Positions 1 through 21,715 of a stretch of DNA of 64,000 nt are shown in pieces. Position numbers and translations under genes: made by a program. The notes under the pieces are model-generated. The model made no database searches, had not been told where the DNA came from, and saw only the letters and a program-made list of their open reading frames with translations. The stretch lies in the IMG/VR virus record IMGVR_UViG_3300045988_183361; one strand, given 5' to 3'. This stretch comes from a virus. Each line of letters opens with the position of its first letter. Within the stretch, counting starts at the first letter, position 1.

Positions 1-645
1 ATCCATATCAAAAGTTACTGTTTTGCCTTTCTTTAACTGAAATAAATCATCTCTGTCATCCCTAAATCTAAATGGGAAATAATCATAACTTTCTATTTCA
101 TTCCTGATAAGATAATCTTTATTAAGCTTAAATGGCTTATCCCATATTTCCTTTACTGTTTTTATTATCATTTTCATATCATTTATTGAAAAGGTTATAC
201 TGCCATCAAAATACTTCATCTGTTTTGTAAGATAATCTATATAGCTTTCAGGAGTATCTTTAAATAATCCTGCATTTATAGCTTCTTTAACTTCATCTAC
301 TGTAAGAGGTAGATATGTATATCGTTTTACGGCTATTATATGTGTTATTCCGGTTACTATTGCTATTACAATTACGCCTATAATAGCAAAAGCAATTAAC
401 AGCATGAAAATTACGCCAAATAGCCATATAGCACCTATGACTGTTTCTATTAAAAATATTGTAAACTTACTGCTTACATCTTCTATATATGGATTTATTT
501 CTTTTCCATTATTTATGTATGGCAATATCAGATTTCCTATAATGGCAGATAAGGCAATGTATATCATAATTGCTCCGACTAATATTACTCCTGCACACTC
601 ATCTAAAAAAACTTTCCAAAATGATTTCTTTTTCTTAAATTTCAT
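1..645 (-). CDS. multi-pass membrane protein, upstream part runs off window start
   Basis: own translation of minus strand: ATG at 643-645 preceded by AAAGGAGATAAGTT SD; frame open to position 1; hydrophobic helices. Confidence 0.5.
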   Translation of the reverse strand, partial: MKFKKKKSFWKVFLDECAGVILVGAIMIYIALSAIIGNLILPYINNGKEINPYIEDVSSKFTIFLIETVIGAIWLFGVIFMLLIAFAIIGVIVIAIVTGITHIIAVKRYTYLPLTVDEVKEAINAGLFKDTPESYIDYLTKQMKYFDGSITFSINDMKMIIKTVKEIWDKPFKLNKDYLIRNEIESYDYFPFRFRDDRDDLFQLKKGKTVTFDMD

Positions 646-648
646 AAC

Positions 649-957
649 TTATCTCCTTTTTAGTATTGGTTTATATATTTTTAAATCTATCTCTTCTGTA
701 ATAAGAAATCCATTCTTATAAGACTCCTTATACTTAAGTGACTTTAAAAATGTTATCTGCTCTTCCCTTGATAACTGCTTCTTAAAGGTAATAATCTCAT
801 CATGGCTGCAATCAGTACATTGCTCAATAAGACTATATAGAAATGACTTCTCTTTTACTCTGTCAATTAAATCAATAGTTGATTTAAACAGCATTATTAC
901 CATAAAAGTTACAATAAACGAAAGTATAATAATCTTCATAAATAGTGTAAAATCCAC
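649..957 (-). CDS. small membrane protein, paralog of 1708..2223
   Basis: ORF track; N-terminal TM helix; shares ..LY..L....S.D....F....SR.EQI.FLKS.. and a KPIL tail with 1708..2223. Confidence 0.5.
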   Translation of the reverse strand: MDFTLFMKIIILSFIVTFMVIMLFKSTIDLIDRVKEKSFLYSLIEQCTDCSHDEIITFKKQLSREEQITFLKSLKYKESYKNGFLITEEIDLKIYKPILKRR

Positions 958-1040
958 ACTATTTTATATTTAAGTAGTGTAAATGTATTAACTTAAATTA
1001 AAGAAAAATCATTATATATTATAATTTTTTTATCATATTT

Positions 1041-1316
1041 TTAATAACCGCCATGCTGTTCAATATATTTCATTAATTCGGGCGAAAATAAACACAGTCC
1101 TCTTATCCCCTGCTTATCAAGCTTCTTTTTTATCTTCTCATATTTTTGCATGTTAAGGATCTTACCGGCCTTATTTACATAGAATGAATTATCAGAAGTA
1201 AAATTATTACAGTCTGATGTAAACCATTCCCCGGATTTATCTTTAAAAATATATCCCCAATATCCGGTTCGCTGTGCTATTTCTCTTGCCTCTTTCCTTG
1301 CTTCTTTAAATGTCAT
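1041..1316 (-). CDS. hypothetical protein
   Basis: ORF track; SD TAGGAGAAAATA before ATG. Confidence 0.5.
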   Translation of the reverse strand: MTFKEARKEAREIAQRTGYWGYIFKDKSGEWFTSDCNNFTSDNSFYVNKAGKILNMQKYEKIKKKLDKQGIRGLCLFSPELMKYIEQHGGY

Positions 1317-1499
1317 TATTTTTCTCCTAAAAAAGACATATCCAAATTCTTTATATCAGCTTCATACCCATTAGGAATATTCCTTAAGGTTATATTCGTA
1401 GATATTTCTTTTAATTTTGTCTGCTGTTTTTCATCCGGATGCCGCATTGACTCAAGAAACCCAACAGCATCATTTCCTGTAAGTTTCATATAAATTCTC
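1306..1499 (-). CDS. small hypothetical protein (about 59 aa, below ORF-track cutoff)
   Basis: own translation MKLTGNDAVGFLESMRHPDEKQQTKLKEIS...; GGAGAA SD; stop overlaps next start. Confidence 0.3.
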
Positions 1500-1707
1500 C
1501 ATACTCAGTTATCATATAAAATAGTCTTTATTGTCTTTTCTTAAAAATCTGCCTTTTACCTCATTAATATCAGCCATTTAGCCCATACTGGTATGTCAGA
1601 GCTACATATTATATAAACATAAAAAGATATAATAAGAGCTATAATAATGGTTATTCCTAATGCTGGTAATATACTTTTAATTTTCTTTATTCTGTAATTT
1701 TTCTGTT

Positions 1708-2223
1708 TCATAGTTTTATCTCCTTTCTAAGGATTGGTTCATACTCTGCTAATTCTTCATCATTCTCAATTAAAGGTACTTTCTGTATTACTGTCTTGGT
1801 TGTAATAACCTTATTACCGTTCTCATCAGTGGACTCTTCCTTTTCCGTTGATTCTACAGTTGTAATAACAGACTTTAGAAAAGCAATCTGTTCATTACGG
1901 CTCATATGTCTGAATTTCTTTAAATCATCCTGTGATATATCATCAAGCAAACAATCATAAAGAAGTTCTTTTTCATGTTCTTTCTCAAAAAATTTTGTAA
2001 AAGCTATCCATACAAGAGCCATTACACTGATTAATAAGGCTATCACAGTAGCTATAAAATTTTTAAAGCTTATATTAACAAGCGCTGGCAATGCTCCCAT
2101 AAGTAAAGACATAAATGCCTTATCTATAAGAGTCATATCGTATATGTTTGCAGTCACAAAATAAAAACTAAGCATAATCAATGAAACAACAAAGACTACA
2201 TTTACTAATATAGTTATAATCAT
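1708..2223 (-). CDS. membrane protein (3-4 TM), paralog of 649..957
   Basis: ORF track; hydrophobic N-terminal half; conserved C-terminal motif shared with 649..957. Confidence 0.55.
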   Translation of the reverse strand: MIITILVNVVFVVSLIMLSFYFVTANIYDMTLIDKAFMSLLMGALPALVNISFKNFIATVIALLISVMALVWIAFTKFFEKEHEKELLYDCLLDDISQDDLKKFRHMSRNEQIAFLKSVITTVESTEKEESTDENGNKVITTKTVIQKVPLIENDEELAEYEPILRKEIKL

Positions 2224-2326
2224 CTTTCTCTTTCCTTTCTGTTTTAATATATATTGTATTGTTTATTCTATTTTATAATGTTTTAGCCAGAAAACCCATG
2301 GTCTTTAGACCGTGGAATGAATGGCG

Positions 2327-3586
2327 TTAAATTACCAAGGTCTGTATCATTTCAGTTGACCTTGCCATTATGCGTTTACAATTACTCAATTTAGGTGTCT
2401 TGTATCCTTTTGGCATTGCCGAAAAATCAACCTTGTTACCATCTATATCCATGAGAACTGCATATCCAGTGGACATTCTACCCTTGATAAAATATTTGTT
2501 TCCAAAGTATCGAACTTTGTCAAATTTTCTAAAGCCACAAATCTTATCAGTGATAATAGGCTGTTCTGAACGAATCCCTTTTGTTTTTTGAAAATCACCA
2601 TCTGAAATGCATTTCTTTTTGTAAAGGTTGGATTTTACAGTAAATATATTGCCTTGTGTTGCAATCGTACAGGCATCATAATAATGTTCTTTGTCAATGC
2701 CAAGAAGCAAACGGTTAGCTTTTGTCACATATCCGAAGGTCTCAACTGCATCTGGATATAATTTAAAAAGCTGTTTACGAATAGAGTTCATCTGTGTGGC
2801 ATATTTAAGATTACCTTTAACTTTACCACTCAATTTGGGGTTAATTTTTCCACTATGTAAATCTTTATGACAGGTATGACACAGAGTAATTAGATTACTT
2901 TCTTCATCAGAACCCCCCTGACTACGAAATAAAATATGATGAACTTCTAACTTACTATCCTTATGTTTGCCTTTACAATATTGACAAGTATAATTATCTC
3001 GATTAAGAACCATCGCTTTGGTATTCTCAAACCCATAATTAATACCTTTCTGATAACCCCAATGTTTAATTTTAGGATTAGCAAGATTTGGATTTTTCAT
3101 AAGGTGAGTATCAAACTGACCTGTCTCAAATACCATTTCTGTAATCGGAAGAATAAATTTAATATATTTTATCTCTTTAACATGACTATGAAGCTTACTC
3201 TGCATCGTAGGGCTAAATCTATCATTCTTAATAGAATTAGCACGATTTAACCATCTTGCTTTTCTATAACGAGCTTTACGATTTCGTCTGTTTCTACGAT
3301 ACTTTGCTCTTTGTGTCATTTTGCCGGTAATGTCGTTTCTTATAACAACTTCCGACATATAGATAATATCTCCATTGTCTTTGCTTACAGAAGTGCCAAT
3401 AGTTCCGCTTCCGGTATCTACACCAAGAGTTAAGTCTTGAGTGTAATTTGTTGTTTCATAAGTCAATTTAATTGTAAATGGCTCACGTTTCTTAACTTTT
3501 GCTTTGCTTTGTTTAAGTAACAATCTTGCTATAGAGTTACTACAGGGCATTAGTGGTTTACCATCTTGTGAAATCACATAAACCAT
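2327..3586 (-). CDS. iscB: IscB RNA-guided nuclease (PLMP, RuvC-I, Arg-rich bridge helix, RuvC-II, HNH, RuvC-III)
   Basis: motifs read from translation: DGKPLMP; LGVDTGSGTIG; RAKYRRNRRNRKARYRKARW; FETGQFD; CQYC..HHI..N..LCHTCH; HYYDA; strong SD AAGGAGG. Confidence 0.85.
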   Translation of the reverse strand: MVYVISQDGKPLMPCSNSIARLLLKQSKAKVKKREPFTIKLTYETTNYTQDLTLGVDTGSGTIGTSVSKDNGDIIYMSEVVIRNDITGKMTQRAKYRRNRRNRKARYRKARWLNRANSIKNDRFSPTMQSKLHSHVKEIKYIKFILPITEMVFETGQFDTHLMKNPNLANPKIKHWGYQKGINYGFENTKAMVLNRDNYTCQYCKGKHKDSKLEVHHILFRSQGGSDEESNLITLCHTCHKDLHSGKINPKLSGKVKGNLKYATQMNSIRKQLFKLYPDAVETFGYVTKANRLLLGIDKEHYYDACTIATQGNIFTVKSNLYKKKCISDGDFQKTKGIRSEQPIITDKICGFRKFDKVRYFGNKYFIKGRMSTGYAVLMDIDGNKVDFSAMPKGYKTPKLSNCKRIMARSTEMIQTLVI

Positions 3587-3858
3587 AAATAAGTTCCTCC
3601 TTATAAATACTCTACTTAATAGTAGGTGATGCGTACTTTGTCGTACTGTTTACCATACGATTGTTCCGACTTCAACTCGACAATGATATAAAGGCTTTTA
3701 TGTACATATCACAAGGCTGTTCTTACTCTGACCTAACTTAAATATGTACGATAGAGCAACGGTCTGTTGCGTCAACCGAAGGTATCATAACCTAAATATC
3801 GTAGTATCCATTTCTGAATACTTAGTCTGGTGAACCATTTAACAGAAGCCCACTACCT
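3587..3858 (-). ncRNA. putative omega-RNA (guide-RNA scaffold) of the IscB element
   Basis: 272-nt non-coding stretch immediately 5' of iscB on the same strand, clearly GC-richer than its surroundings, multiple stable hairpins; matches the known IscB locus architecture. Confidence 0.5.
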
Positions 3859-4800
3859 TTAGGTGGTGGGTAGTTCACTTAATTCACCTGATTCTTTGTT
3901 AAATATAAATATATCTGAACTCAGATAATCTTCTTCTTCCTGAATACCAAATATCTTTAATGCCATTTGAATTTCTTCAGGAGTAAATTCATTGTATTTA
4001 CATATCAACAGAATATGTGCTGTAACAGGAACAATGTATAAATTTGTTTTCAGTTTCTCTGAAATATTCTTAAGCAAATTATTATTCAGAATTGCACTTG
4101 TGTTATAAAAGTCAATTATATTTTGAATTGCATATATTCCTTTAATACATTTGCTCTCAAACCCATCAGAATTACTTAGAGAAAATAATTCTTTCTTTGT
4201 TTTTTCATAATTATCATCATCTGCCAGTTGCGTCAAAAAATAATCACCTAATACACTGATAAAATATTTGTTGGAATATATTGAATGAATTGCAAGATTG
4301 TACAATTCGTTTTCATCAATTTTCAGTATGTCTCTCATATAGTTATTATCAATTACAAACATTGTACCTTCTGAATTTTCTTTAGGTATGATCACATTAT
4401 AAATTATTTCGAACTCATAAAATGGCCTATGAGGAATACCGCTTAAATCTTCCATATTGTCCGGCTTTTGTATTAATTGAGGTATAATATAGTGTTTTAT
4501 ATCATTTAAATTAATTTCTGGAGCTAAATTATTAAGTTTATATTCACTACCATTAGAATTTTTGTTTCTATAAAATGCTTCAGATATTGACAATGCAATT
4601 TCTTCTATTGACGAATTATTTAAATATTGTTTATATAATTGATTTAATTTAAATTCTAAGGGACACATAAACTGATTTTTAGAATGAAAAATAAGCTTAT
4701 CTGATGTGCAAACTATATCTGTTGGTGTAATATCTTCAATATTTTGAAGTAATTCGAATTTAAGATGTTTAAGAAAATCTTCGTAATTCATTTTTTGCAT
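3859..4800 (-). CDS. hypothetical protein
   Basis: ORF track; SD AAAGGAGAATTAATTAT; TGTCATAT box at 4837-4852. Confidence 0.6.
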   Translation of the reverse strand: MQKMNYEDFLKHLKFELLQNIEDITPTDIVCTSDKLIFHSKNQFMCPLEFKLNQLYKQYLNNSSIEEIALSISEAFYRNKNSNGSEYKLNNLAPEINLNDIKHYIIPQLIQKPDNMEDLSGIPHRPFYEFEIIYNVIIPKENSEGTMFVIDNNYMRDILKIDENELYNLAIHSIYSNKYFISVLGDYFLTQLADDDNYEKTKKELFSLSNSDGFESKCIKGIYAIQNIIDFYNTSAILNNNLLKNISEKLKTNLYIVPVTAHILLICKYNEFTPEEIQMALKIFGIQEEEDYLSSDIFIFNKESGELSELPTT

Positions 4801-4836
4801 ATAATTAATTCTCCTTTTATTTAGTTATATTTTTAA

Positions 4837-4852
4837 TATGACAGAAAAAATG
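4837..4852 (-). promoter_or_regulatory. TTTTTCTGTCATAT box (putative promoter core) for 3859..4800
   Basis: conserved box about 37 nt upstream of ATG, preceded by an AT hairpin and U-run. Confidence 0.5.
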
Positions 4853-4997
4853 AATTATTATTTTACATAAAATAATTGATGTGTGTTAAAATAAGACAGC
4901 AACTAAATGTAAATGCCTTTTATTTATTAAAATATCCCGTTTTTGTGTTTTTCTAAGCACTTTATTGGGTATACTATGCCTTCACTTGTAAAAAATA

Positions 4998-5373
4998 ATA
5001 ACAATATATTGTACGTTTATTGTTATATATTAGTTTAATATGTTAACTTTATTAACAATATATAGTTATTTAAGATTTATTAAAATATAGCTAAGATACA
5101 AAAATAATAACAATATATAGATATAAAATATGATTTAATATACATTAAAAATAACAACATTATGTTATAGAATAGAAAAATTTGTGTAATAAAATTAACA
5201 ATATATAGCTAAATATTTGATACATAAATGTAATAATGATAACAATATATAGTAATGTATTATCCGTTGCATAGCCAATAAAATGCCTTATATGTGTCAG
5301 AATAATACCATGATGTAGTTATCATATGCTGATTTAAGAGATAAAAAATGTTAATTTGATAACATATAATTGG
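4998..5373. repeat. iteron-like array: at least 5 direct copies of (A/T)TAACAATATATAG plus degenerate copies
   Basis: copies at about 4998, 5051, 5105, 5194, 5239 and variants at 5151 and 5358; spacing 45-55 bp; inside a 1.3-kb gene-free AT-rich region. Confidence 0.5.
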
Positions 5374-6081
5374 TAATATTAGCAATTATATATGGATTAA
5401 TTGGGTACAATAGACTGTATGATCAGTGAGAAAAATAAATATAACTGATTAATGGGATATAATTATTATTTACTAAAGTTAATTAATGGAATTACTGGAA
5501 ACATATATAGGAATGATAGAGTAAAGGAAATAGATCTAAGAGCAAATAAGAAAGAATTAGTGTATAAGAATGCAGCTATTGGAGATAGAAATGGGATTAT
5601 TGGGCTTACTAAGGCATTTGCAGGGCGAAGAATAGATTTACAGGAATCTAGTAATCATAATTTTTGTAATTATCATATATTATATATGAGGGAATTATAT
5701 TATTTATTAGTGTATTAAAGGCATTAATTGGGATAAATGAAGTGCTTGCTAGAGACAGGTAAGGAATTACCAGGGAAATAAACACAAAATGTATTAAGCT
5801 GATAAATGATATTGTATAAGGATATGACAATAATAGTTATACGCTTTTAATCCTTAATAATATTCTGGCGGTTATTATATTAAGTCTTAAAACGCTATTA
5901 AGGAATAATCAAATGTATTATATAAGGCTCTAATTTTTATATTTTAATAATAAAAAGCGTATCAATGGAAAAGAAAATAATAAAAAGGTTCTAAAAAAGG
6001 TGTATGACATATTACACTTAAAGGAAGTGTAATCATAAAAAAAATACAGCTACCTATTGATAACTGCATTTTATTTATATA

Positions 6082-7110
6082 TTACATAAAAGATTGTATA
6101 CTATATCCTTTCCGTCTGAAACGAACTCTAATCTTTTTTATTGCTTTTGATTCAATCTGTCTGATTCGTTCTCTGGATACATTCCATTCAGTACCTATAT
6201 CTTGTAAAGTTTTAACTTTTGAGCCATATCCCATTCTACCCTTAATTACATATAATTCTCTAGGAGTGAGACAATCTTCAACTTCTTTCCAAAGCAGTTC
6301 TTTCATTTCTTTTTGAATAATCGTATCTTCAACTTTAGGTTCAGGAGCTTCTATATAATCAGCCAAACATGAATCGTCATGGCCTTCATCACTTTGAATA
6401 GGTGCATCTAATGAAACCAATTCATTAAAACTCTGAATATGCACAAGCATTTCTTTAGTTAAAAGAGGATATCTTTGTTTTACTACATCATATAATTCAT
6501 CAATTGTAGGTTTTCTTTGAAGTTTATTAGTTAAATCCACAAATGTAGTCTTAACAAAAGAATCCTGTTCTCTTACATGTACAGGGAATCTAACTAATAA
6601 ATCATAATTGGCTAATTCTCTATATATACTCTGTCTAATCCAATGAGTTGCATAAGTTGAAAATGCATATCCTAATTTATAATCAAACATTTGTATAGCT
6701 CTGTATAACCCGAAAATACCGGCCTGACATAAATCATCCATTTCAAAACTTTGCGTTTTAGCTGTAACAGCTTTAGCAATACTGATGACTAAACGCATAT
6801 TAGATAAAATCAATTTTTCGGTTATTTCTTTTTTCTTTTTAGGATGTTTTTTTATCTCTTCAAATAATTTAAGAGTTTCATCTTTGGATAAAACCGGATA
6901 ATCAGCGAATGATTTAATATAATAAGTTATATTATTTTCTAATAATAGTTTCTCTTTTTCATTTAAAATCTCTTTATCATTTAAAATATCGGTATAATTA
7001 TCCTCTGATAAAATATTTATGTTTTCTATTGGTTTATTTGTATCAAATAATTCATCAATATATTCATCTTTATTGTTTTTTTTATTTAATAATAAATTCT
7101 TATCTGCCAT
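6082..7110 (-). CDS. sigma-70 family RNA polymerase sigma factor (regions 2 and 4 present)
   Basis: region 2-like YAFSTYATHWIRQSI; region 4.2 HTH LQDIGTEWNVSRERIRQIESKAIKKIR. Confidence 0.85.
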   Translation of the reverse strand: MADKNLLLNKKNNKDEYIDELFDTNKPIENINILSEDNYTDILNDKEILNEKEKLLLENNITYYIKSFADYPVLSKDETLKLFEEIKKHPKKKKEITEKLILSNMRLVISIAKAVTAKTQSFEMDDLCQAGIFGLYRAIQMFDYKLGYAFSTYATHWIRQSIYRELANYDLLVRFPVHVREQDSFVKTTFVDLTNKLQRKPTIDELYDVVKQRYPLLTKEMLVHIQSFNELVSLDAPIQSDEGHDDSCLADYIEAPEPKVEDTIIQKEMKELLWKEVEDCLTPRELYVIKGRMGYGSKVKTLQDIGTEWNVSRERIRQIESKAIKKIRVRFRRKGYSIQSFM

Positions 7111-15780: not shown

Positions 15781-16539
15781 CTATGAGCATAACTTCTTAA
15801 GGTTATTTCTCATACCGGCTGACTCAAACTGGAAAACATTCTTAGTTCTTCCTTTTGCATATACTTCTTTGTATACCTTATCAGCTTTAGGACCCTCTAA
15901 TGGAATATTCATTACATCAATTACTTCTCCTGTATCTCTCTGAATCATTCTGAGTGTGTCAGTAATAATTGTAAGAGTTTTTAATCCAAGAAAATCCATT
16001 TTTAATAATCCATTAGCTTCGCACTGAATCATGTCCATTTCTGTAGTTTTAATTCCCTTTTTTCCATCTCTAATAGGAATATAATCAGTAACATCATTAC
16101 TATCATAAATAATAACACCTGCGGCATGTTGTGCGTATGTCGTAAGCATACCTTCACAATGAGCTGCAATATTAAGAATAGAAATAGCATCTGGATTACT
16201 ATTATATTCATCCTTTAAGAAATCTAACAAAGAAATGCTGTCCTGAATATTAATGCCTAATTCATCAACCTTATTAGTATCTTTCATGCCAACAATATCT
16301 TCAAAATTAGTTGCTTTAGCAGGCACTTTCTTACGAATCTGATCTCCTAAAGATAAGAATTTCTTTTCATCATCATAAGCTTTCTTTCCATAATATCTTG
16401 CAGCATCTCTGATAGCACCTTTAGCCTGCTGTCTTGATTCTGTAATAATTCCAACAACAGCTTCACTACCATATTTAGCTCTTACATACTCAATTGTCTT
16501 TTCTCTTACTCCAAGAGCAAGATCACTATCGATATCCAA
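15781..16539 (-). CDS. dnaE: DnaE-type Pol III alpha, middle segment (exon 2 / palm-thumb)
   Basis: begins DIDSDLA (the PDxD DID.DF catalytic motif), ends FQFESAGMRNNLKKL; followed by its own terminator. Confidence 0.8.
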   Translation of the reverse strand: MDIDSDLALGVREKTIEYVRAKYGSEAVVGIITESRQQAKGAIRDAARYYGKKAYDDEKKFLSLGDQIRKKVPAKATNFEDIVGMKDTNKVDELGINIQDSISLLDFLKDEYNSNPDAISILNIAAHCEGMLTTYAQHAAGVIIYDSNDVTDYIPIRDGKKGIKTTEMDMIQCEANGLLKMDFLGLKTLTIITDTLRMIQRDTGEVIDVMNIPLEGPKADKVYKEVYAKGRTKNVFQFESAGMRNNLKKLCS

Positions 16540-17477
16540 ATATACCCCTACTTTCGTAGTACTTTAACACTTGTATAAGTGGGATTAGACTATATCTCAA
16601 TATAATATTGTTAATATTATATTTCAACGCACTTCCAACTGTAACCATTCTCAGTTGTACTCCTTAAAAAGGATAGTCGTTACACTTTAAAATAAATAAT
16701 ATTATATACGAACAATTTTTAAGTCATTCCATTTTAAATATTTATGCATTGAGGAATAACTTGCGTTATATTTTTCTTTAGCATATCGAGCTGCTGCTAA
16801 TATGCTTTCAAATCTATCAATTAATATATCTCCTTTATATAATTTACAACACTTATAATTTCTTACAGGAGACATAGTTTTATAACTATCATATAAATTG
16901 TCTTTTCTAGTACACCATTCTAAATTATTCACCTTACAATTTTGTTTATTTTTGTCTTTATGATTAACTTCTGGTAGATTATAAGGATTAGGAATAAAAT
17001 TCATCGCAACTAATCGATGCAATAAAAATTTTTTATTATCTAATCTTATCATCCTGTAATTCTTTTTACTATCTAAAAAAGGTTTAAGTTGTCGAATTTT
17101 CCCTTGTTTTATACTAAAAATCTTTCCATATGAAGTTATGTAATATTCGTGGTGATTTTTAATTTCTACTATTTTTTCACCTTTTTCAAGGAATGATGTA
17201 AAATTGATATAATCTATCATAAATATACACCTCCTTATTTATATAATATTATTTATAATCTTAGCACGGTATCGCCTGCTATCCTTCAATATCTTTTATA
17301 TAAAAATACGAGGACCGTAGGTTCTCTTACGAAGCTGCTTCGTCTATGGGTTAAGCTATATATCCTGTTGTGACACTTTATATAGCAGTCTTATTCAACT
17401 TCTACCGTTAGCACTTAATAATAAAATATTAAGCACACCTCTGAGTTAGAGTCCACGCTGAACGCCCAATATATTTA
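16540..17477 (-). ncRNA. group I intron interrupting dnaE, with HNH homing-endonuclease ORF
   Basis: about 940 nt inserted exactly between ..ERVSMP and DIDSD.. of the DnaE active site; GC-richer structured flanks at 17221-17477 and 16540-16701 around an internal ORF with its own SD. Confidence 0.6.
16702..17220 (-). CDS. HNH homing endonuclease (intron-encoded)
   Basis: NHKDKNKQNCKVNNLEWCTRKDN HNH-type motif; SD AAGGAGGTG; sits inside the intron. Confidence 0.8.
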   Translation of the reverse strand: MIDYINFTSFLEKGEKIVEIKNHHEYYITSYGKIFSIKQGKIRQLKPFLDSKKNYRMIRLDNKKFLLHRLVAMNFIPNPYNLPEVNHKDKNKQNCKVNNLEWCTRKDNLYDSYKTMSPVRNYKCCKLYKGDILIDRFESILAAARYAKEKYNASYSSMHKYLKWNDLKIVRI

Positions 17478-19270
17478 GGCATACTTACTCTTTCTGGATT
17501 TAAGAATCGTTCAAAAATCAGATTATACTTAAATGGATCAATTCCGGTAATACCAAGTAAATATGTAACCAATGAACCGGCACCTGAACCTCTTCCAATG
17601 CCTATTCCAATTCCGGTATTATAATTGTGAGTCTTAACATACTCTTTTGCACCTTCAATTGTTAAAGGTACTTCTGATAGTTTATCCATAGGCACTAATC
17701 CACAAATTCTTCCATATTCCAGAAAGTCCTTTACAATTAAATGATAATCGGCAAAGCCCATCTGAATGATAATATTAAGTTCGTATTCCATTCGTTTCTG
17801 ATGTTCTTCATCCCATCCTTTTCCGTTAGGATATCTCCAATTAATTCCCTTAATTGCTTCAGATCTTAATAATTCGTTTGAGTCCTTGTTCTTATCAAAT
17901 ACTGGATAATGATTAGATTTTTCTGGAATATAAGCACATCTTTTTCCAATTACATTTAAGTTATTGAGTGCTTCTGCAACCTGATCATCTGTTAATATAG
18001 CTGATAAGGCCTGAGCAAGTTCGTAAGGTGTTTTTACATATAACTCTTTATCTGATTCCGACTCACTTATCTTAATAAATCTTAAAAATTTAGCTACATT
18101 ACGCATATCAATACTTCTATCAGAATTATCTGCCATATGTGCATCATTAGCAGCAACTAATGGGATATTATGCTTCCTTGCTAACTGAGCTAACACAGGA
18201 TATGTTCTGCTTTCCATTTCAAGCCCATGATTCTGAACTTCAATGTAATAATTACCTGCTCCAAAAATTTCCTGATAAAAAAGCATTGTCTTTTCTGCTT
18301 CAGACATTAATTCTATTGGGCTTTTCTTTAATGATTCATAATGCTGTATCTTATTTTCATGATTAATATATTCCTCTACTTTAAGACTTATATCCTTTAA
18401 CTCGGCTTTCTTAGCATTAACTAATTTTCTGACATTAGGAATTTTATCTTTAGCTTCCAGAATTTTATTATTTATCTCCTCATATTCGTTAATCAGTTTA
18501 ATAAGCTCTGGATCATCATCATTTAAACACTTTCTTGCATCTCTTAATTTTCTTGAAATCTGTGTTCTTTCTGATTTAAGTTCCTTGGAATCACGAATAT
18601 TAATCAATTCATCTAAATCTGCCGATACCCTTTCAAATTCATCTTTAGCTGAAAGATATTCTTTATCATCAGGACTTATACAATCACGTATAACTAGCTC
18701 GTCTTTTTCAGTAGTATGCTGCTGTGCTTTTCTTTCTCTGTTAATCATTTTATCCAAAACATCATCTGATAATAATTGCAGAGCTGGTGCACCCGAAACG
18801 CAAGCAGAAGTTGCTATTATATCACCGTTAAAGTTATATTTCTTTAAATCTGATATTGTAATAACAGGCTTTCCCATTCTTTTTTCAGAAGCCTTAGAAT
18901 TTAACTTATCAATAATATGCTTGCCTCTTTCTGAAGTGGCTAACATAATCATATGGCCAATCTGCTCATTTATCTTAAATGGTGGCACTTCAATATAAGC
19001 CTCTACGCCATAAATGATATTAAAAGGATGTTCCTCAGTACTTATTTTCTTAGCGTAATCAATACATGTTTGCATTGCTGAAAATGATGCATGGTCCGTA
19101 ACAGCAAATTTAGTATATCCTGCATTAAATGCAGCATCTAAATAACTTTTAGGTTCATCTACGGCATCAAACAAAGAGCCTCCTGGATGGTTATGTTCAC
19201 ACACTGTAACTCCTGACTCAATAACCTTTTTTGTTAATTCTCCAATTTTTACATGTTCAAACATTGACAT
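17429..19270 (-). CDS. dnaE: DnaE-type Pol III alpha, N-terminal PHP + palm segment (exon 1; coding part probably ends near 17478, remainder is intron read-through)
   Basis: PHP motifs [20 protein letters not shown]; palm [34 protein letters not shown]. Confidence 0.85.
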
Positions 19271-19381: not shown

Positions 19382-20533
19382 TTATTCTACCTTAACAACG
19401 TCTCCTCTATCTGATGTTTCAGTAATAACAATATACTTGATTTCCATATTGTCGTTTGCAAGAGCAATTCTTGTTACATTATCTTCCTTACTTGTATCGA
19501 CAATCCAATCATATCCTTCAACTGCAGACATTATCTTTGAATCAGTAATGATTTTATCAACATACTCTCCAATCATAATTCTGTCTTCAAGTCTGATAAA
19601 ATCAGCACTATTCCAACCAATTGAAACAGATTTAATATGTGAAGGGATATTAATACTATTGAGCCTCATTAATGTACCACCATTAAGAGCAATCATTTCT
19701 GCTTTAATATGATCCATTTCGATTAATTCCTTAGTATTAGTAATTGTATCTAAATGATAATCACAATTATTGCATTCATCATAATCTCCACAATCATTTT
19801 CGCAGTCATAACCACAATCACAATCAGGATTATAATAATTATTATCACATACCTGCTCTGTATATTCAATGACCCATGTAGGTACATTCATTGAATTTCT
19901 TACAGTAATGACATTATTTATTGGTGCATCAAGCATTAAATAACTTGAAATATAATTCTTTGCACCATCATAAACGATAATTTCAGCATTATCAAAATAT
20001 TCAGCGAAAATATCTTTTCCATTAAAATCCTTCTTTGTTTCAAAGTGTGTATAGGAAGTCTTTAGTATCACATATTTGTCACATACACCTATAACTTCCG
20101 GCATTGGAATTGAAACTGGAATAAGTTTCTTAAACTTATCCTCATCCGGCTTATAAGCAAATAAATCAATATAATCATCATGTTCTGTTGTGTTTTCTCT
20201 AGGTAATACAGATAATAAAAGCTTACCTGGAACAGATGTAACGATACTCTTAATTACCAGTGAACCCTGCTGTGTAGCAGCAACACCATCCTTAAGTAAA
20301 ATTCCGTCTTCTACTGAATATCCATCTGGAATATCTGGAATATTAGGATTGCTGATAAGTCTAAAAGCAATTGCGTTAGATGATGATATCATAACAGATA
20401 TATCCTCGTTTACTTCACCATTTTCTAAAAGACAAGCCGTTCCTACGCCATCGGTAACAGATGTAATTAAATACTGTCTGTTGTCAACCTTGTTTAATAC
20501 TGTTACATTTTCTAAAATTTTGTTTTCTCTCAT
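19382..20533 (-). CDS. hypothetical protein, paralog of 20666..21715, with Cys/Asp-rich insert
   Basis: shared NVTVLNKVD, SLVI.SI...V.G.L.LSV.PRE and IT/SETxDRGD C-terminus; CDNNYYNPDCDCGYDCENDCGDYDECNNCDYH insert. Confidence 0.55.
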   Translation of the reverse strand: MRENKILENVTVLNKVDNRQYLITSVTDGVGTACLLENGEVNEDISVMISSSNAIAFRLISNPNIPDIPDGYSVEDGILLKDGVAATQQGSLVIKSIVTSVPGKLLLSVLPRENTTEHDDYIDLFAYKPDEDKFKKLIPVSIPMPEVIGVCDKYVILKTSYTHFETKKDFNGKDIFAEYFDNAEIIVYDGAKNYISSYLMLDAPINNVITVRNSMNVPTWVIEYTEQVCDNNYYNPDCDCGYDCENDCGDYDECNNCDYHLDTITNTKELIEMDHIKAEMIALNGGTLMRLNSINIPSHIKSVSIGWNSADFIRLEDRIMIGEYVDKIITDSKIMSAVEGYDWIVDTSKEDNVTRIALANDNMEIKYIVITETSDRGDVVKVE

Positions 20534-20665: not shown

Positions 20666-21715
20666 TTACTCTATGGTTATAATGTCTCCTCTATCTCTTG
20701 TTTCAGAAATAACAAGAGTCTTTATCTCCATAGTATTTGTATTAGCAAGAGAAATTCTTGTAACATGATCCTTAGATGTAATATCCACAATTACATTATA
20801 ACCTGCAAGCTCAGCAACTATCTTATCTGGGATCTTATATGTGATATCATTAATATACCACTTGCCTGAAGAAGCTTTAATCAGGCTTGCATTATATCCC
20901 TTTGAAATTGATTCTGGAACACTGTCAATTGCTGTTGTCTTATAAAGACTTAATGAATGACCTTCAGAAGCAACAAATCTTAATGTAATATAATCATCTT
21001 CCTTGATAACTCCGTCAGAATCGACTACTGTATCTGCTTCAATTGCGAAAATTGTTTCATTAGGTGCCTTAACAGAATCTACAGCCTTAATTGGCTCCGC
21101 AAAAGAAACATGATCAACAACTGCATCAGACATTACATCATATAACATGATTGCTGCAGCATCAAAGATATTATCTGTTTCAATAGTTCCATCTTCAAGC
21201 TTCTTATCCTTAGTATAAGTTCTTGAATATGTCATATATAACTGCATCTTATTCTCAGAAGAAGCAATGATTGTAACTTCTGGAATAGATCTTCTGATAA
21301 GCTTATTAAACTTATCTGACTCAACTGTATATGACATAATATCGAAATAACCTTCTCTTGGTTCTCTTGGTTCGACAGATAAAATAAGTCTTCCTGCAAC
21401 ACCTGCAATAATACTATTAATTACAAGTGAACCCTGTTCTGTAGCAGGGACTCCATTCTTAAGCAAAATTCCGTTTTTTACAGTATATCCAGTTGGAACA
21501 TCTGGAATATTAGGATCATCAATCAGCTTGTAAGCTATTGCATTATTAGCTGTAATTACTGCAGTAACCGAATCATCAAGTGAACCATCCTCCTTGATTA
21601 ACTTGGCTGTTCCTTTAATGGAATCACCTGAACCATCAACATTAATTACCTGGTAATTCTTACGGTCTACCTTGTTTAATACTGTTACATTAGTCTTAAT
21701 CTTGTTTATTCTCAT
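20666..21715 (-). CDS. hypothetical protein, paralog of 19382..20533
   Basis: as above. Confidence 0.55.
   Translation of the reverse strand: MRINKIKTNVTVLNKVDRKNYQVINVDGSGDSIKGTAKLIKEDGSLDDSVTAVITANNAIAYKLIDDPNIPDVPTGYTVKNGILLKNGVPATEQGSLVINSIIAGVAGRLILSVEPREPREGYFDIMSYTVESDKFNKLIRRSIPEVTIIASSENKMQLYMTYSRTYTKDKKLEDGTIETDNIFDAAAIMLYDVMSDAVVDHVSFAEPIKAVDSVKAPNETIFAIEADTVVDSDGVIKEDDYITLRFVASEGHSLSLYKTTAIDSVPESISKGYNASLIKASSGKWYINDITYKIPDKIVAELAGYNVIVDITSKDHVTRISLANTNTMEIKTLVISETRDRGDIITIE

Follow-up and report, generated by a model that had tools for sequence, protein, structure and literature searches.

Among the described phage introns, the DNA polymerase intron of the Bacillus phages SPO1 and SP82 (I-HmuI/I-HmuII) and that of Bastille (I-BasI) carry an endonuclease of the HNH family within a replicative polymerase gene, the T4 td intron (I-TevI) loops an open reading frame (ORF) with its own translation signals out of P6/P6a and occupies active-site codons of a DNA-metabolism gene, and the orf142 introns of Staphylococcus phage Twort (subgroup IA2, AF132670) reside in a phage protein gene; these traits recur in the element described here. 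The phage IA introns of T4 td, Twort and SPO1 self-splice in vitro, and a crystal structure of the Twort ribozyme is reportedly available. The present element lies on the minus strand of the IMG/VR virus record IMGVR_UViG_3300045988_183361 (64,000 nucleotides (nt); this whole stretch is referred to as the window), in dnaE, the gene of the DNA polymerase III (Pol III) alpha subunit. We conclude that the 940 nt at 17476..16537 are very probably a mobile phage group I intron of IA type, which splits dnaE after a Pro codon, just ahead of the codon for the first catalytic Asp.

The host gene of the SPO1, SP82 and Bastille introns encodes a family A (Pol I-like) polymerase, whereas dnaE of the window encodes a family C enzyme (DnaE/Pol III alpha), hence the two target sites are unrelated; BLAST found no similarity between the dnaE-intron ribozyme and the SPO1/SP82/Bastille-type ribozyme. 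The T4 td intron shares the P4'-GUGCUAA segment with the dnaE intron, but differs by its GIY-YIG enzyme and its canonical P2. With the Twort introns the dnaE intron has in common P7.1 and P7.2, a P9 with a GAAA loop, a terminal G, and near-identical J6/7-P7 (AAAGUG-Y-AACGACUAU) and J8/7-P7' (GAUAUAGUCU) segments; the J8/7-P7' element at 16600-16588, GAGAUAUAGUCUA, is common to Twort-type introns. The Twort introns differ in having a compact P4-P5, in being detected by the Rfam group I model RF00028 and in having a P2 between P1 and P3, whereas the dnaE intron is without P2 and is missed by RF00028. Local alignment of its 3' half to the three Twort introns yielded little beyond the shared core motifs. 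True homologues, with the same insertion site, guide-exon pairing and helices, are found in phage G, in a Staphylococcus phage SPbeta-like and in Mammaliicoccus phage phi116.

The pieces of the gene and of the insert are as follows (aa, amino acids).

17477..19270, minus strand: dnaE exon 1, encoding PHP and the initial part of the Pol III alpha NTPase/palm domain (ORF and Pfam)
16537..17476, minus strand: very probable group I intron, 940 nt (absence in a near-identical contig, same-site homologues, covariation-supported fold)
16702..17220, minus strand: HNH ORF of the I-HmuI family, 172 aa, wholly within the P6a loop (Pfam and PDB match)
15781..16536, minus strand: dnaE exon 2, starting with DIDSD (catalytic aspartates) and terminating in ...FQFESAGMRNNLKKLCS followed by a stop codon
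8546..10231, minus strand: dnaE C-terminal cistron, 561 aa, with what remains of the finger domain plus HhH and the OB fold (Pfam)

The ORF that contains exon 1 (19270..17429) encodes 613 aa; its dnaE-related part terminates in ...ERVSMP with T17477 as the final base, a boundary set by means of the intron-less allele described below, after which 16 unrelated codons precede a stop. Exon 1 matches PHP and positions 55-102 of the 260 of the DNA_pol3_alpha profile in Pfam. The exon-2 ORF (16539..15781) opens with TTG(M)-DIDSDLALGVREKTIEYVRAKYG and resumes the same profile at position 103, directly after the 102 of exon 1. Joining T17477 to G16536 preserves the frame, the joined exons read ...AGTATGCCTGATATCGAT..., and a spliced product of 849 aa is predicted. 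The joined peptide aligns without gaps to residues 421-513 of Thermus aquaticus Pol III alpha (2HPI) and to residues 359-451 of the Escherichia coli enzyme (2HNH), and a 530-aa query that spans the junction matches over 1190 uninterrupted phage DnaE genes, in one unbroken alignment each. In E. coli numbering the insert lies between Pro400 and Asp401, one codon before the catalytic aspartates; according to published work, Asp401 and Asp403 are the catalytic residues of the E. coli enzyme. The proposal of the first-pass annotation that dnaE is split by an insert, and that the two parts re-create a contiguous catalytic region, is thus upheld by the reading frame, by the gapless structure-based alignments and by a natural allele.

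This allele was found in one of two near-identical phage contigs retrieved by an IMG/VR scan with the C-terminal DnaE protein. L067 (contig 3300045988_182851, 99% identical) has the insert, while L068 (contig 3300029581_000240, ~98% identical) is devoid of exactly 17476..16537: its positions 1-3566 align to 21052-17477 of the window and its positions 3567-6999 to 16536-13104. The L068 junction, ...AGTATGCCT|GATATCGATAGC... (ATGCCT|GATATC), is in frame and encodes ERVSMPDIDSD; the removal of the insert therefore restores an intact conserved gene at this site, and the 940 nt make up a discrete unit that near-identical genomes either have or lack. Its 5' end is AAAUAUAUUGGGCG and its 3' end ...GGGGUAUAUUUG, with G16537 as the terminal (omega) G, and both ends obey the group I rules, the upstream exon ending in U and the element in G. 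The insert had been placed at 16540-17477 with a length of about 940 nt; the length was right, and the boundaries were displaced by 1-3 nt. The ends are GC-richer, as had been supposed, only to a degree, with 34.0% GC in the 5' non-coding part and 28.5% in the 3' part, versus 24.1% in the ORF and 28.8% in the whole window.

Both halves of dnaE show mostly synonymous change. Between the window and L068, synonymous and non-synonymous differences number 21 and 3 in exon 1, 5 and 3 in exon 2, and 24 and 8 in the C-terminal cistron, and between the window and the intron-bearing L067 exon 1 has 18 synonymous differences and one non-synonymous. Such a pattern indicates purifying selection, and thus that the interrupted dnaE is in use, so the insert would have to be removed at the RNA level.

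A 25-nt motif of the 5' part of the intron matches 62 IMG/VR loci, about 30 of them at the same Pro|Asp site of dnaE. These same-site inserts belong to at least five DnaE sequence lineages, range from 352 to 1207 nt and may or may not have an ORF; the ORF-less inserts of 352-358 nt occupy the same site. In BLAST, the 5' non-coding part matches Mammaliicoccus phage phi116 and Bacillus phage G, and the 3' part has its closer match in the Staphylococcus phage SPbeta-like and more distant ones in intron regions of Twort, K-like/812 and Streptococcus thermophilus phages. Annotated DnaE fragments flank the match on either side, at ...LP|DIDID..., in phage G, the SPbeta-like phage and phi116, and the assembled genomes of Lacrimispora amygdalina and Clostridium porci also have a same-site insert. 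A close ORF-less relative of 452 nt (L007) has a single hairpin where the intron of the window has its ORF, therefore the ORF replaces the loop of one hairpin.

Sister introns compared for ORF type (L003 from phage G, L002 and L004 from phi116, L013, L014, L011, L034, L056 and L001, the SPbeta-like phage) carry HNH_3/NUMOD4 proteins, GIY-YIG/NUMOD3 proteins, a 35-aa GIY-YIG remnant or no ORF. The GIY-YIG/NUMOD3 carriers are phage G (gp330), phi116 and two IMG/VR loci, and the SPbeta-like phage retains the remnant only, whereas the window has an HNH protein. Such mixed endonuclease content of introns at one site is the pattern usual for mobile introns.

GenBank annotates the same-site dnaE introns as split or truncated polymerase genes (gp329/gp330 in phage G, dnaE_2/dnaE_1 in the SPbeta-like phage). 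The annotated ATG start of dnaE_1 in the latter (L001 5143-5145) is the last three bases of the intron, the phi116 record (L004 1-15) opens within the intron so that its 'DNA polymerase' coding sequence (CDS) begins 15 nt before the real exon, and gp329 of phage G (L003 4158-5312) extends 17 codons into the intron. In phage G and its relative L006, dnaE exon 2 ends after only 164-172 aa, hence these genes hold at least one further interruption.

The ORF within the insert is preceded, 9 nt ahead of its ATG, by the Shine-Dalgarno sequence AAGGAGG (17236-17230). Its product matches Pfam HNH_3 with 35.1 bits (cutoff 24.8; E = 1e-8) and NUMOD4 with 20.8 bits, under the cutoff of 23.4, and it aligns over residues 20-112 to the intron-encoded nicking endonuclease I-HmuI (PDB 1U3E, 174 aa; E = 4.2e-9) through the HNH motif VNHKD...NLEW. 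The internal HNH ORF with its own ribosome-binding site, as first noticed by eye, was therefore correctly recognised. Window and L067 differ in this ORF at two positions only, and both differences are non-synonymous.

The fold was deduced from an alignment of 15 distinct same-site introns (A1), with the ORF loops cut out and 8 nt of each exon kept. Helices were taken from a column-pair scan and RNAalifold, and the hand-assembled structure was then scored. Its elements in the window are listed below; 'paired' refers to the percentage of alignment cells that can pair.

17463..17481, minus strand: P1, exon UGCCU (17481-17477) with guide GGGCG (17467-17463), U.G at the splice site
17472-17468 with 16536-16532, minus strand: P10, AUAUU with the first five exon-2 bases GAUAU, 85% paired
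17461-17454 with 16631-16624, minus strand: P3, UCAGCGUG, 8 base pairs, 99.2% paired, 5 both-side pair changes
17411..17451, minus strand: P3.1 (CUCU/AGAG) and P3.2 (GUGCUUAA/UUAAGUGC), provisional names, hairpins between P3 and P4
17266..17408, minus strand: P4-P5 domain, P4 being ACGGUA (17408-17403) with UACCGU (17271-17266)
17402-17331, minus strand: P4a-c branched insert, P4a 100% paired; GAAG/CUUC, UCAG/CUGA, AAAG/CUUU
17322-17274, minus strand: P5/P5a, P5a 100% paired
17221..17265, minus strand: 5' strands of P6 and P6a and the ORF leader, P6 being GCU at 17265-17263
17256-17247 with 16701-16692, minus strand: P6a, AUAAAUAAUA with UAUUAUUUAU; P6 and P6a covary in every pair examined
16588..16701, minus strand: 3' catalytic core, with P6a/P6 3' strands, J6/7, P7, P7.1, P7.2, P3 3' strand, P8 and J8/7 (GAG-AU)
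16678-16673 with 16593-16588, minus strand: P7, GACUAU with AUAGUC, invariant, pairable in 93% of cells
16672-16662, minus strand: P7.1, covaries in 4/4 pairs
16657-16636, minus strand: P7.2, covaries in 6/6 pairs, 100% paired
16623-16599, minus strand: P8, every pair covaries
16537..16587, minus strand: P9 three-way junction, CCC/GGG (16583-16581 with 16547-16545) enclosing two hairpins

In the 103 pairs of this structure 93.1% of the cells are paired, versus 35-46% after sliding of the partners by 1-3 columns, and the covariation score is 0.492 versus at most 0.107 in the controls; none of 500 shuffles reached the observed values. Changes on both sides occur in 62 of the 103 pairs, and RNAalifold independently recovered P1, P3, P4, P5, P6, P7.2, P8 and P9b. 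The U17477.G17467 wobble at the splice site is U.G in all 15 sequences, while the exon-guide pair at -4 covaries (GC in 9, AU in 3, CG in 3). Compensatory changes back P3, P4, P5, P6 and P8; P4 pairs in 100% of cells and includes a single compensatory pair (GC in 11, AU in 4). The crossing of P3 and P7 is the pseudoknot typical of group I introns. P3.1 and P3.2 are paired in 81-83% of cells with 2 and 5 covarying pairs, respectively, and the stop codon of the exon-1 read-through (17431-17429) falls in P3.2. In the P9 junction the second hairpin (16559-16548) has an invariant GAAA loop and is followed by 7 nt and the terminal G16537, a base present in all aligned homologues; P9b covaries in 4/4 pairs. 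The window copy has every core helix intact. A fold with P1, P10, the P3/P7 pseudoknot, P4-P6, P7.1/P7.2, P8 and P9, as expected of a group I intron, is accordingly supported across the 15 homologues.

Two drafts of the structure were discarded. A hand-drawn P4 (ACGG/CCGU, beside P5) is mismatched in 7/15 sequences and was replaced by the P4 of RNAalifold. A P3 strand in its canonical place just upstream of J3/4 (the GUGC repeats) was given up too, as position 74 takes part in covariation inside a local hairpin and, in four sequences, would not pair with P3'.

Four independent lines of evidence, namely the intron-less allele, the covariation-supported fold, core segments like those of proven phage introns and the homology of the ORF product to I-HmuI, agree with the group I intron that the first-pass annotation had proposed. 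Every defining group I property examined was found, the exceptions being the Rfam score and a P2 in its canonical place. These two exceptions and several further observations weigh against our assignment. RF00028 gave no match in the window, either at the gathering score or at E <= 10; among the other members of the dnaE intron family run against it (L001, L006, L007, L022 and L033), the ORF-less L001 reached 10.7 bits with a gathering score of 50, the model aligning its GAGAUAUAGUCUAGUCC to its own J8/7-P7' consensus, and the four further ORF-less relatives gave nothing. The covariance-model search that had been suggested as a check was thus negative for the window and its ORF-less relatives. 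The same model works on canonical IA2 introns, as it finds the three Twort orf142 introns (L148, AF132670) at 64-101 bits. P3 begins one base after P1 with no P2 between them, two hairpins (41 nt) stand between P3 and P4, and a branch of ~70 nt (17402-17331) stands between P4 and P5; for the helix order of 17331-17461 no precedent was met among the IA2 structures compared, those of T4 td and Twort. In the window copy the first pair of P5 is A.C, P7 never varies and so yields no covariation, and the shuffle statistics are inflated because the 15 aligned sequences are interrelated.

The slid-partner control is unaffected by that relatedness, and the unusual helix order is itself supported by covariation in A1. 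RF00028 also finds nothing in the 126.5-130.7 kb region of Twort (L147), which has compact cores that we call intron-like by inspection of the sequence, in a record with no intron annotation there; the coverage of the model is therefore patchy and its negative result on the dnaE intron is weak evidence. With a single model, Rfam under-detects phage group I introns. As to the subgroup, the presence of P7.1 and P7.2 suggests subgroup IA (IA2-like). Subgroup IA2 has a P2 between P1 and P3 and a short J3/4, features that are absent from the fold of the dnaE intron.

We propose that the transcript of the N-terminal part of dnaE folds so that the guide GGGCG pairs with the exon end UGCCU in P1, upon which a free guanosine bound in P7 would attack after U17477. 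The terminal G16537 would next occupy the guanosine site, while AUAUU beside the guide would hold the exon-2 bases GAUAU in P10, and exon ligation would generate ...ERVSMP-DIDSD... within a DnaE N-terminal protein of 849 aa. The ORF in the P6a loop may be translated from its own Shine-Dalgarno sequence into an I-HmuI-like HNH endonuclease. In co-infections the enzyme would nick or cut intron-less dnaE alleles, and repair from the intron-bearing copy would result in homing. Nick-initiated homing is the mechanism expected for I-HmuI-type introns, according to papers cited in PMC7685451 and PMC3984707. Self-splicing, the activity and target of the endonuclease, and homing are predictions made from sequence comparisons.

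That the element may be immobile, with a functional ribozyme, an inactive or repurposed HNH ORF, and a presence/absence pattern left by old homing or precise loss, we consider rather unlikely. Both ORF differences between the window and L067 are non-synonymous, NUMOD4 stays below the Pfam cutoff, sister introns have decayed endonuclease genes such as the 35-aa remnant of the SPbeta-like phage, and no co-conversion tract, that is, no cluster of differences beside the insertion site marking recent homing, was found between the window and L068. However, the ORF is intact, nearly as long as I-HmuI and aligned to it through the HNH motif, with a strong Shine-Dalgarno sequence, and intron-plus and intron-minus alleles coexist among genomes that are 98-99% identical. 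It is quite unlikely that splicing in vivo needs help from a protein, be it the HNH protein or a factor of the host or the phage: the self-splicing of the related phage IA introns in vitro speaks against such a need, as do the intact core helices of the window copy and the persistence of ORF-less copies in functional-looking genes, even though the ribozyme parts are AT-rich (28-34% GC), the periphery is unusual and the closing pair of P5 is weak.

A free-standing HNH gene that split dnaE, the two parts being translated separately (the second from the TTG at 16539) and assembled non-covalently, is a highly improbable explanation. In its favour, a real break of the gene-in-pieces kind exists in the same dnaE at 15781/10231, the TTG at the start of exon 2 has a G-rich stretch upstream, and GenBank records give the two parts as separate CDSs. 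Nevertheless, the 421 non-coding nt form a covariation-supported group I fold whose guide pairs with both exon ends, and a split at Pro|Asp would part residues of a single catalytic motif. The last three bases of the intron are ATG, GTG or TTG in some homologues and AAG, TAG or AGG in others, thus separate translation of exon 2 is not a conserved feature, and since ORF-less versions exist at the site, no endonuclease gene is needed to explain the insert. Inteins are common in replication proteins including DnaE, according to the literature; here, an intein or a group II intron is hardly conceivable, as the Rfam and Pfam scans gave no intein, reverse-transcriptase or group II RNA match, and the stop 16 codons into the insert makes it untranslatable and so excludes an intein. 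A mobile group I intron remains our preferred reading by far.

Splicing alone does not restore a full-length dnaE, because the gene has a second break at 15781/10231. The exon-2 ORF ends at 15781 after 251 aa, inside the finger domain (Pfam profile positions 1-59), and the C-terminal cistron continues with DNA_pol3_finger positions 63-162 of 166, HHH_6 and OB, colinear with uninterrupted DnaE genes and with no residues missing; the N part ends with ...NLKKLCS and the C part begins with MNKTG. Between the halves lie 5.5 kb with eight genes, of which one encodes a flap endonuclease and another an RlaP-type nucleotidyltransferase. In a comparison with genes split by an endonuclease gene, none of the latter kind was recognised among the intervening genes that were scanned. 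A hairpin and a T run after 15781 were seen by eye and were not listed by the terminator scan, whereas upstream of 10231 there are a scanned terminator (10308-10287), a TTCTGTCAT motif and a Shine-Dalgarno sequence. The break is confined, among the relatives checked, to the window, L067 and L068. Elsewhere in the window no group I core motif was found, nor was there an intron core or intein remnant at 15781/10231; a second intron, trans-splicing or a split intein at this place was rejected since a core motif is missing and the parts are separated by their own terminator, promoter-like motif and Shine-Dalgarno sequence. The break is a gene in pieces, neither intron nor intein, and is unrelated to the intron. 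The T4-related gp43A/B and the nrdA gene of Aeromonas phage Aeh1 split by mobE, both split without splicing, resemble this break only, consisting of two cistrons with their own signals, and differ from it in that here eight unrelated genes separate the halves.

The 9-mer TTCTGTCAT occurs at 21 sites in the window, versus an expectation of 0.87, with 20 sites on the coding strand (e.g. 19314-19306, 15724-15716 and 10277-10269, minus strand). Its context is T-rich, 30-45 nt upstream of a Shine-Dalgarno sequence and a start codon, often just past a terminator, and it precedes both dnaE cistrons and not the intron ORF. Probably, this 9-mer serves the phage as a promoter or a regulatory motif. A sigma-70 family protein with regions 2 and 4 (6082-7110, minus strand) is a candidate reader of it.

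Elsewhere in the window, a phage-borne IscB system lies on the minus strand, with a HEARO/omega RNA at 3878-3665 (109.8 bits, gathering score 83) and, directly downstream, a 419-aa RRXRR and HNH protein (3586-2327, minus strand). Upstream of dnaE, two tandem ORFs (19382-20533 and 20666-21715, minus strand) look like paralogues, both starting with M-R-x-N-K-I-x-x-N-V-T-V-L-N-K-V-D and ending with ...TRI-LAN-...-ITE-TSDRGD; the one that was scanned, 19382-20533, has no Pfam match.

No description of a phage dnaE group I intron was found in the open-access literature searched, and the insertion site and the intron lineage seem to be undescribed; the biology itself is ordinary and of a well known kind. 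Possible, but doubtful, is a broader reading, in which the dnaE intron represents an undescribed structural subclass of IA-like introns, widespread in phages and prophages of Firmicutes and missed by annotation, and the replicase of this phage is made of an RNA-spliced N part and a separately encoded C part that meet inside the finger domain. If so, the split genes named 'dnaE_1/dnaE_2' in databases would be intron-containing genes.

For the window phage, phage G, the SPbeta-like phage and phi116 the annotation can be corrected, as the 'truncated' or duplicated dnaE genes that flank an endonuclease gene are very probably one intron-containing gene, the exact splice junction of which can now be written. 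The intron also reveals that the single group I model of Rfam has a blind spot. The family C replicative polymerase thereby joins the phage genes targeted by group I introns, and an insertion at the codons of the catalytic aspartates fits the rule that homing endonucleases choose the most conserved DNA. Natural intron-plus/minus pairs, together with a single ribozyme that occurs with an HNH ORF, with a GIY-YIG ORF or with none, make a good system for the study of how introns and endonucleases associate.

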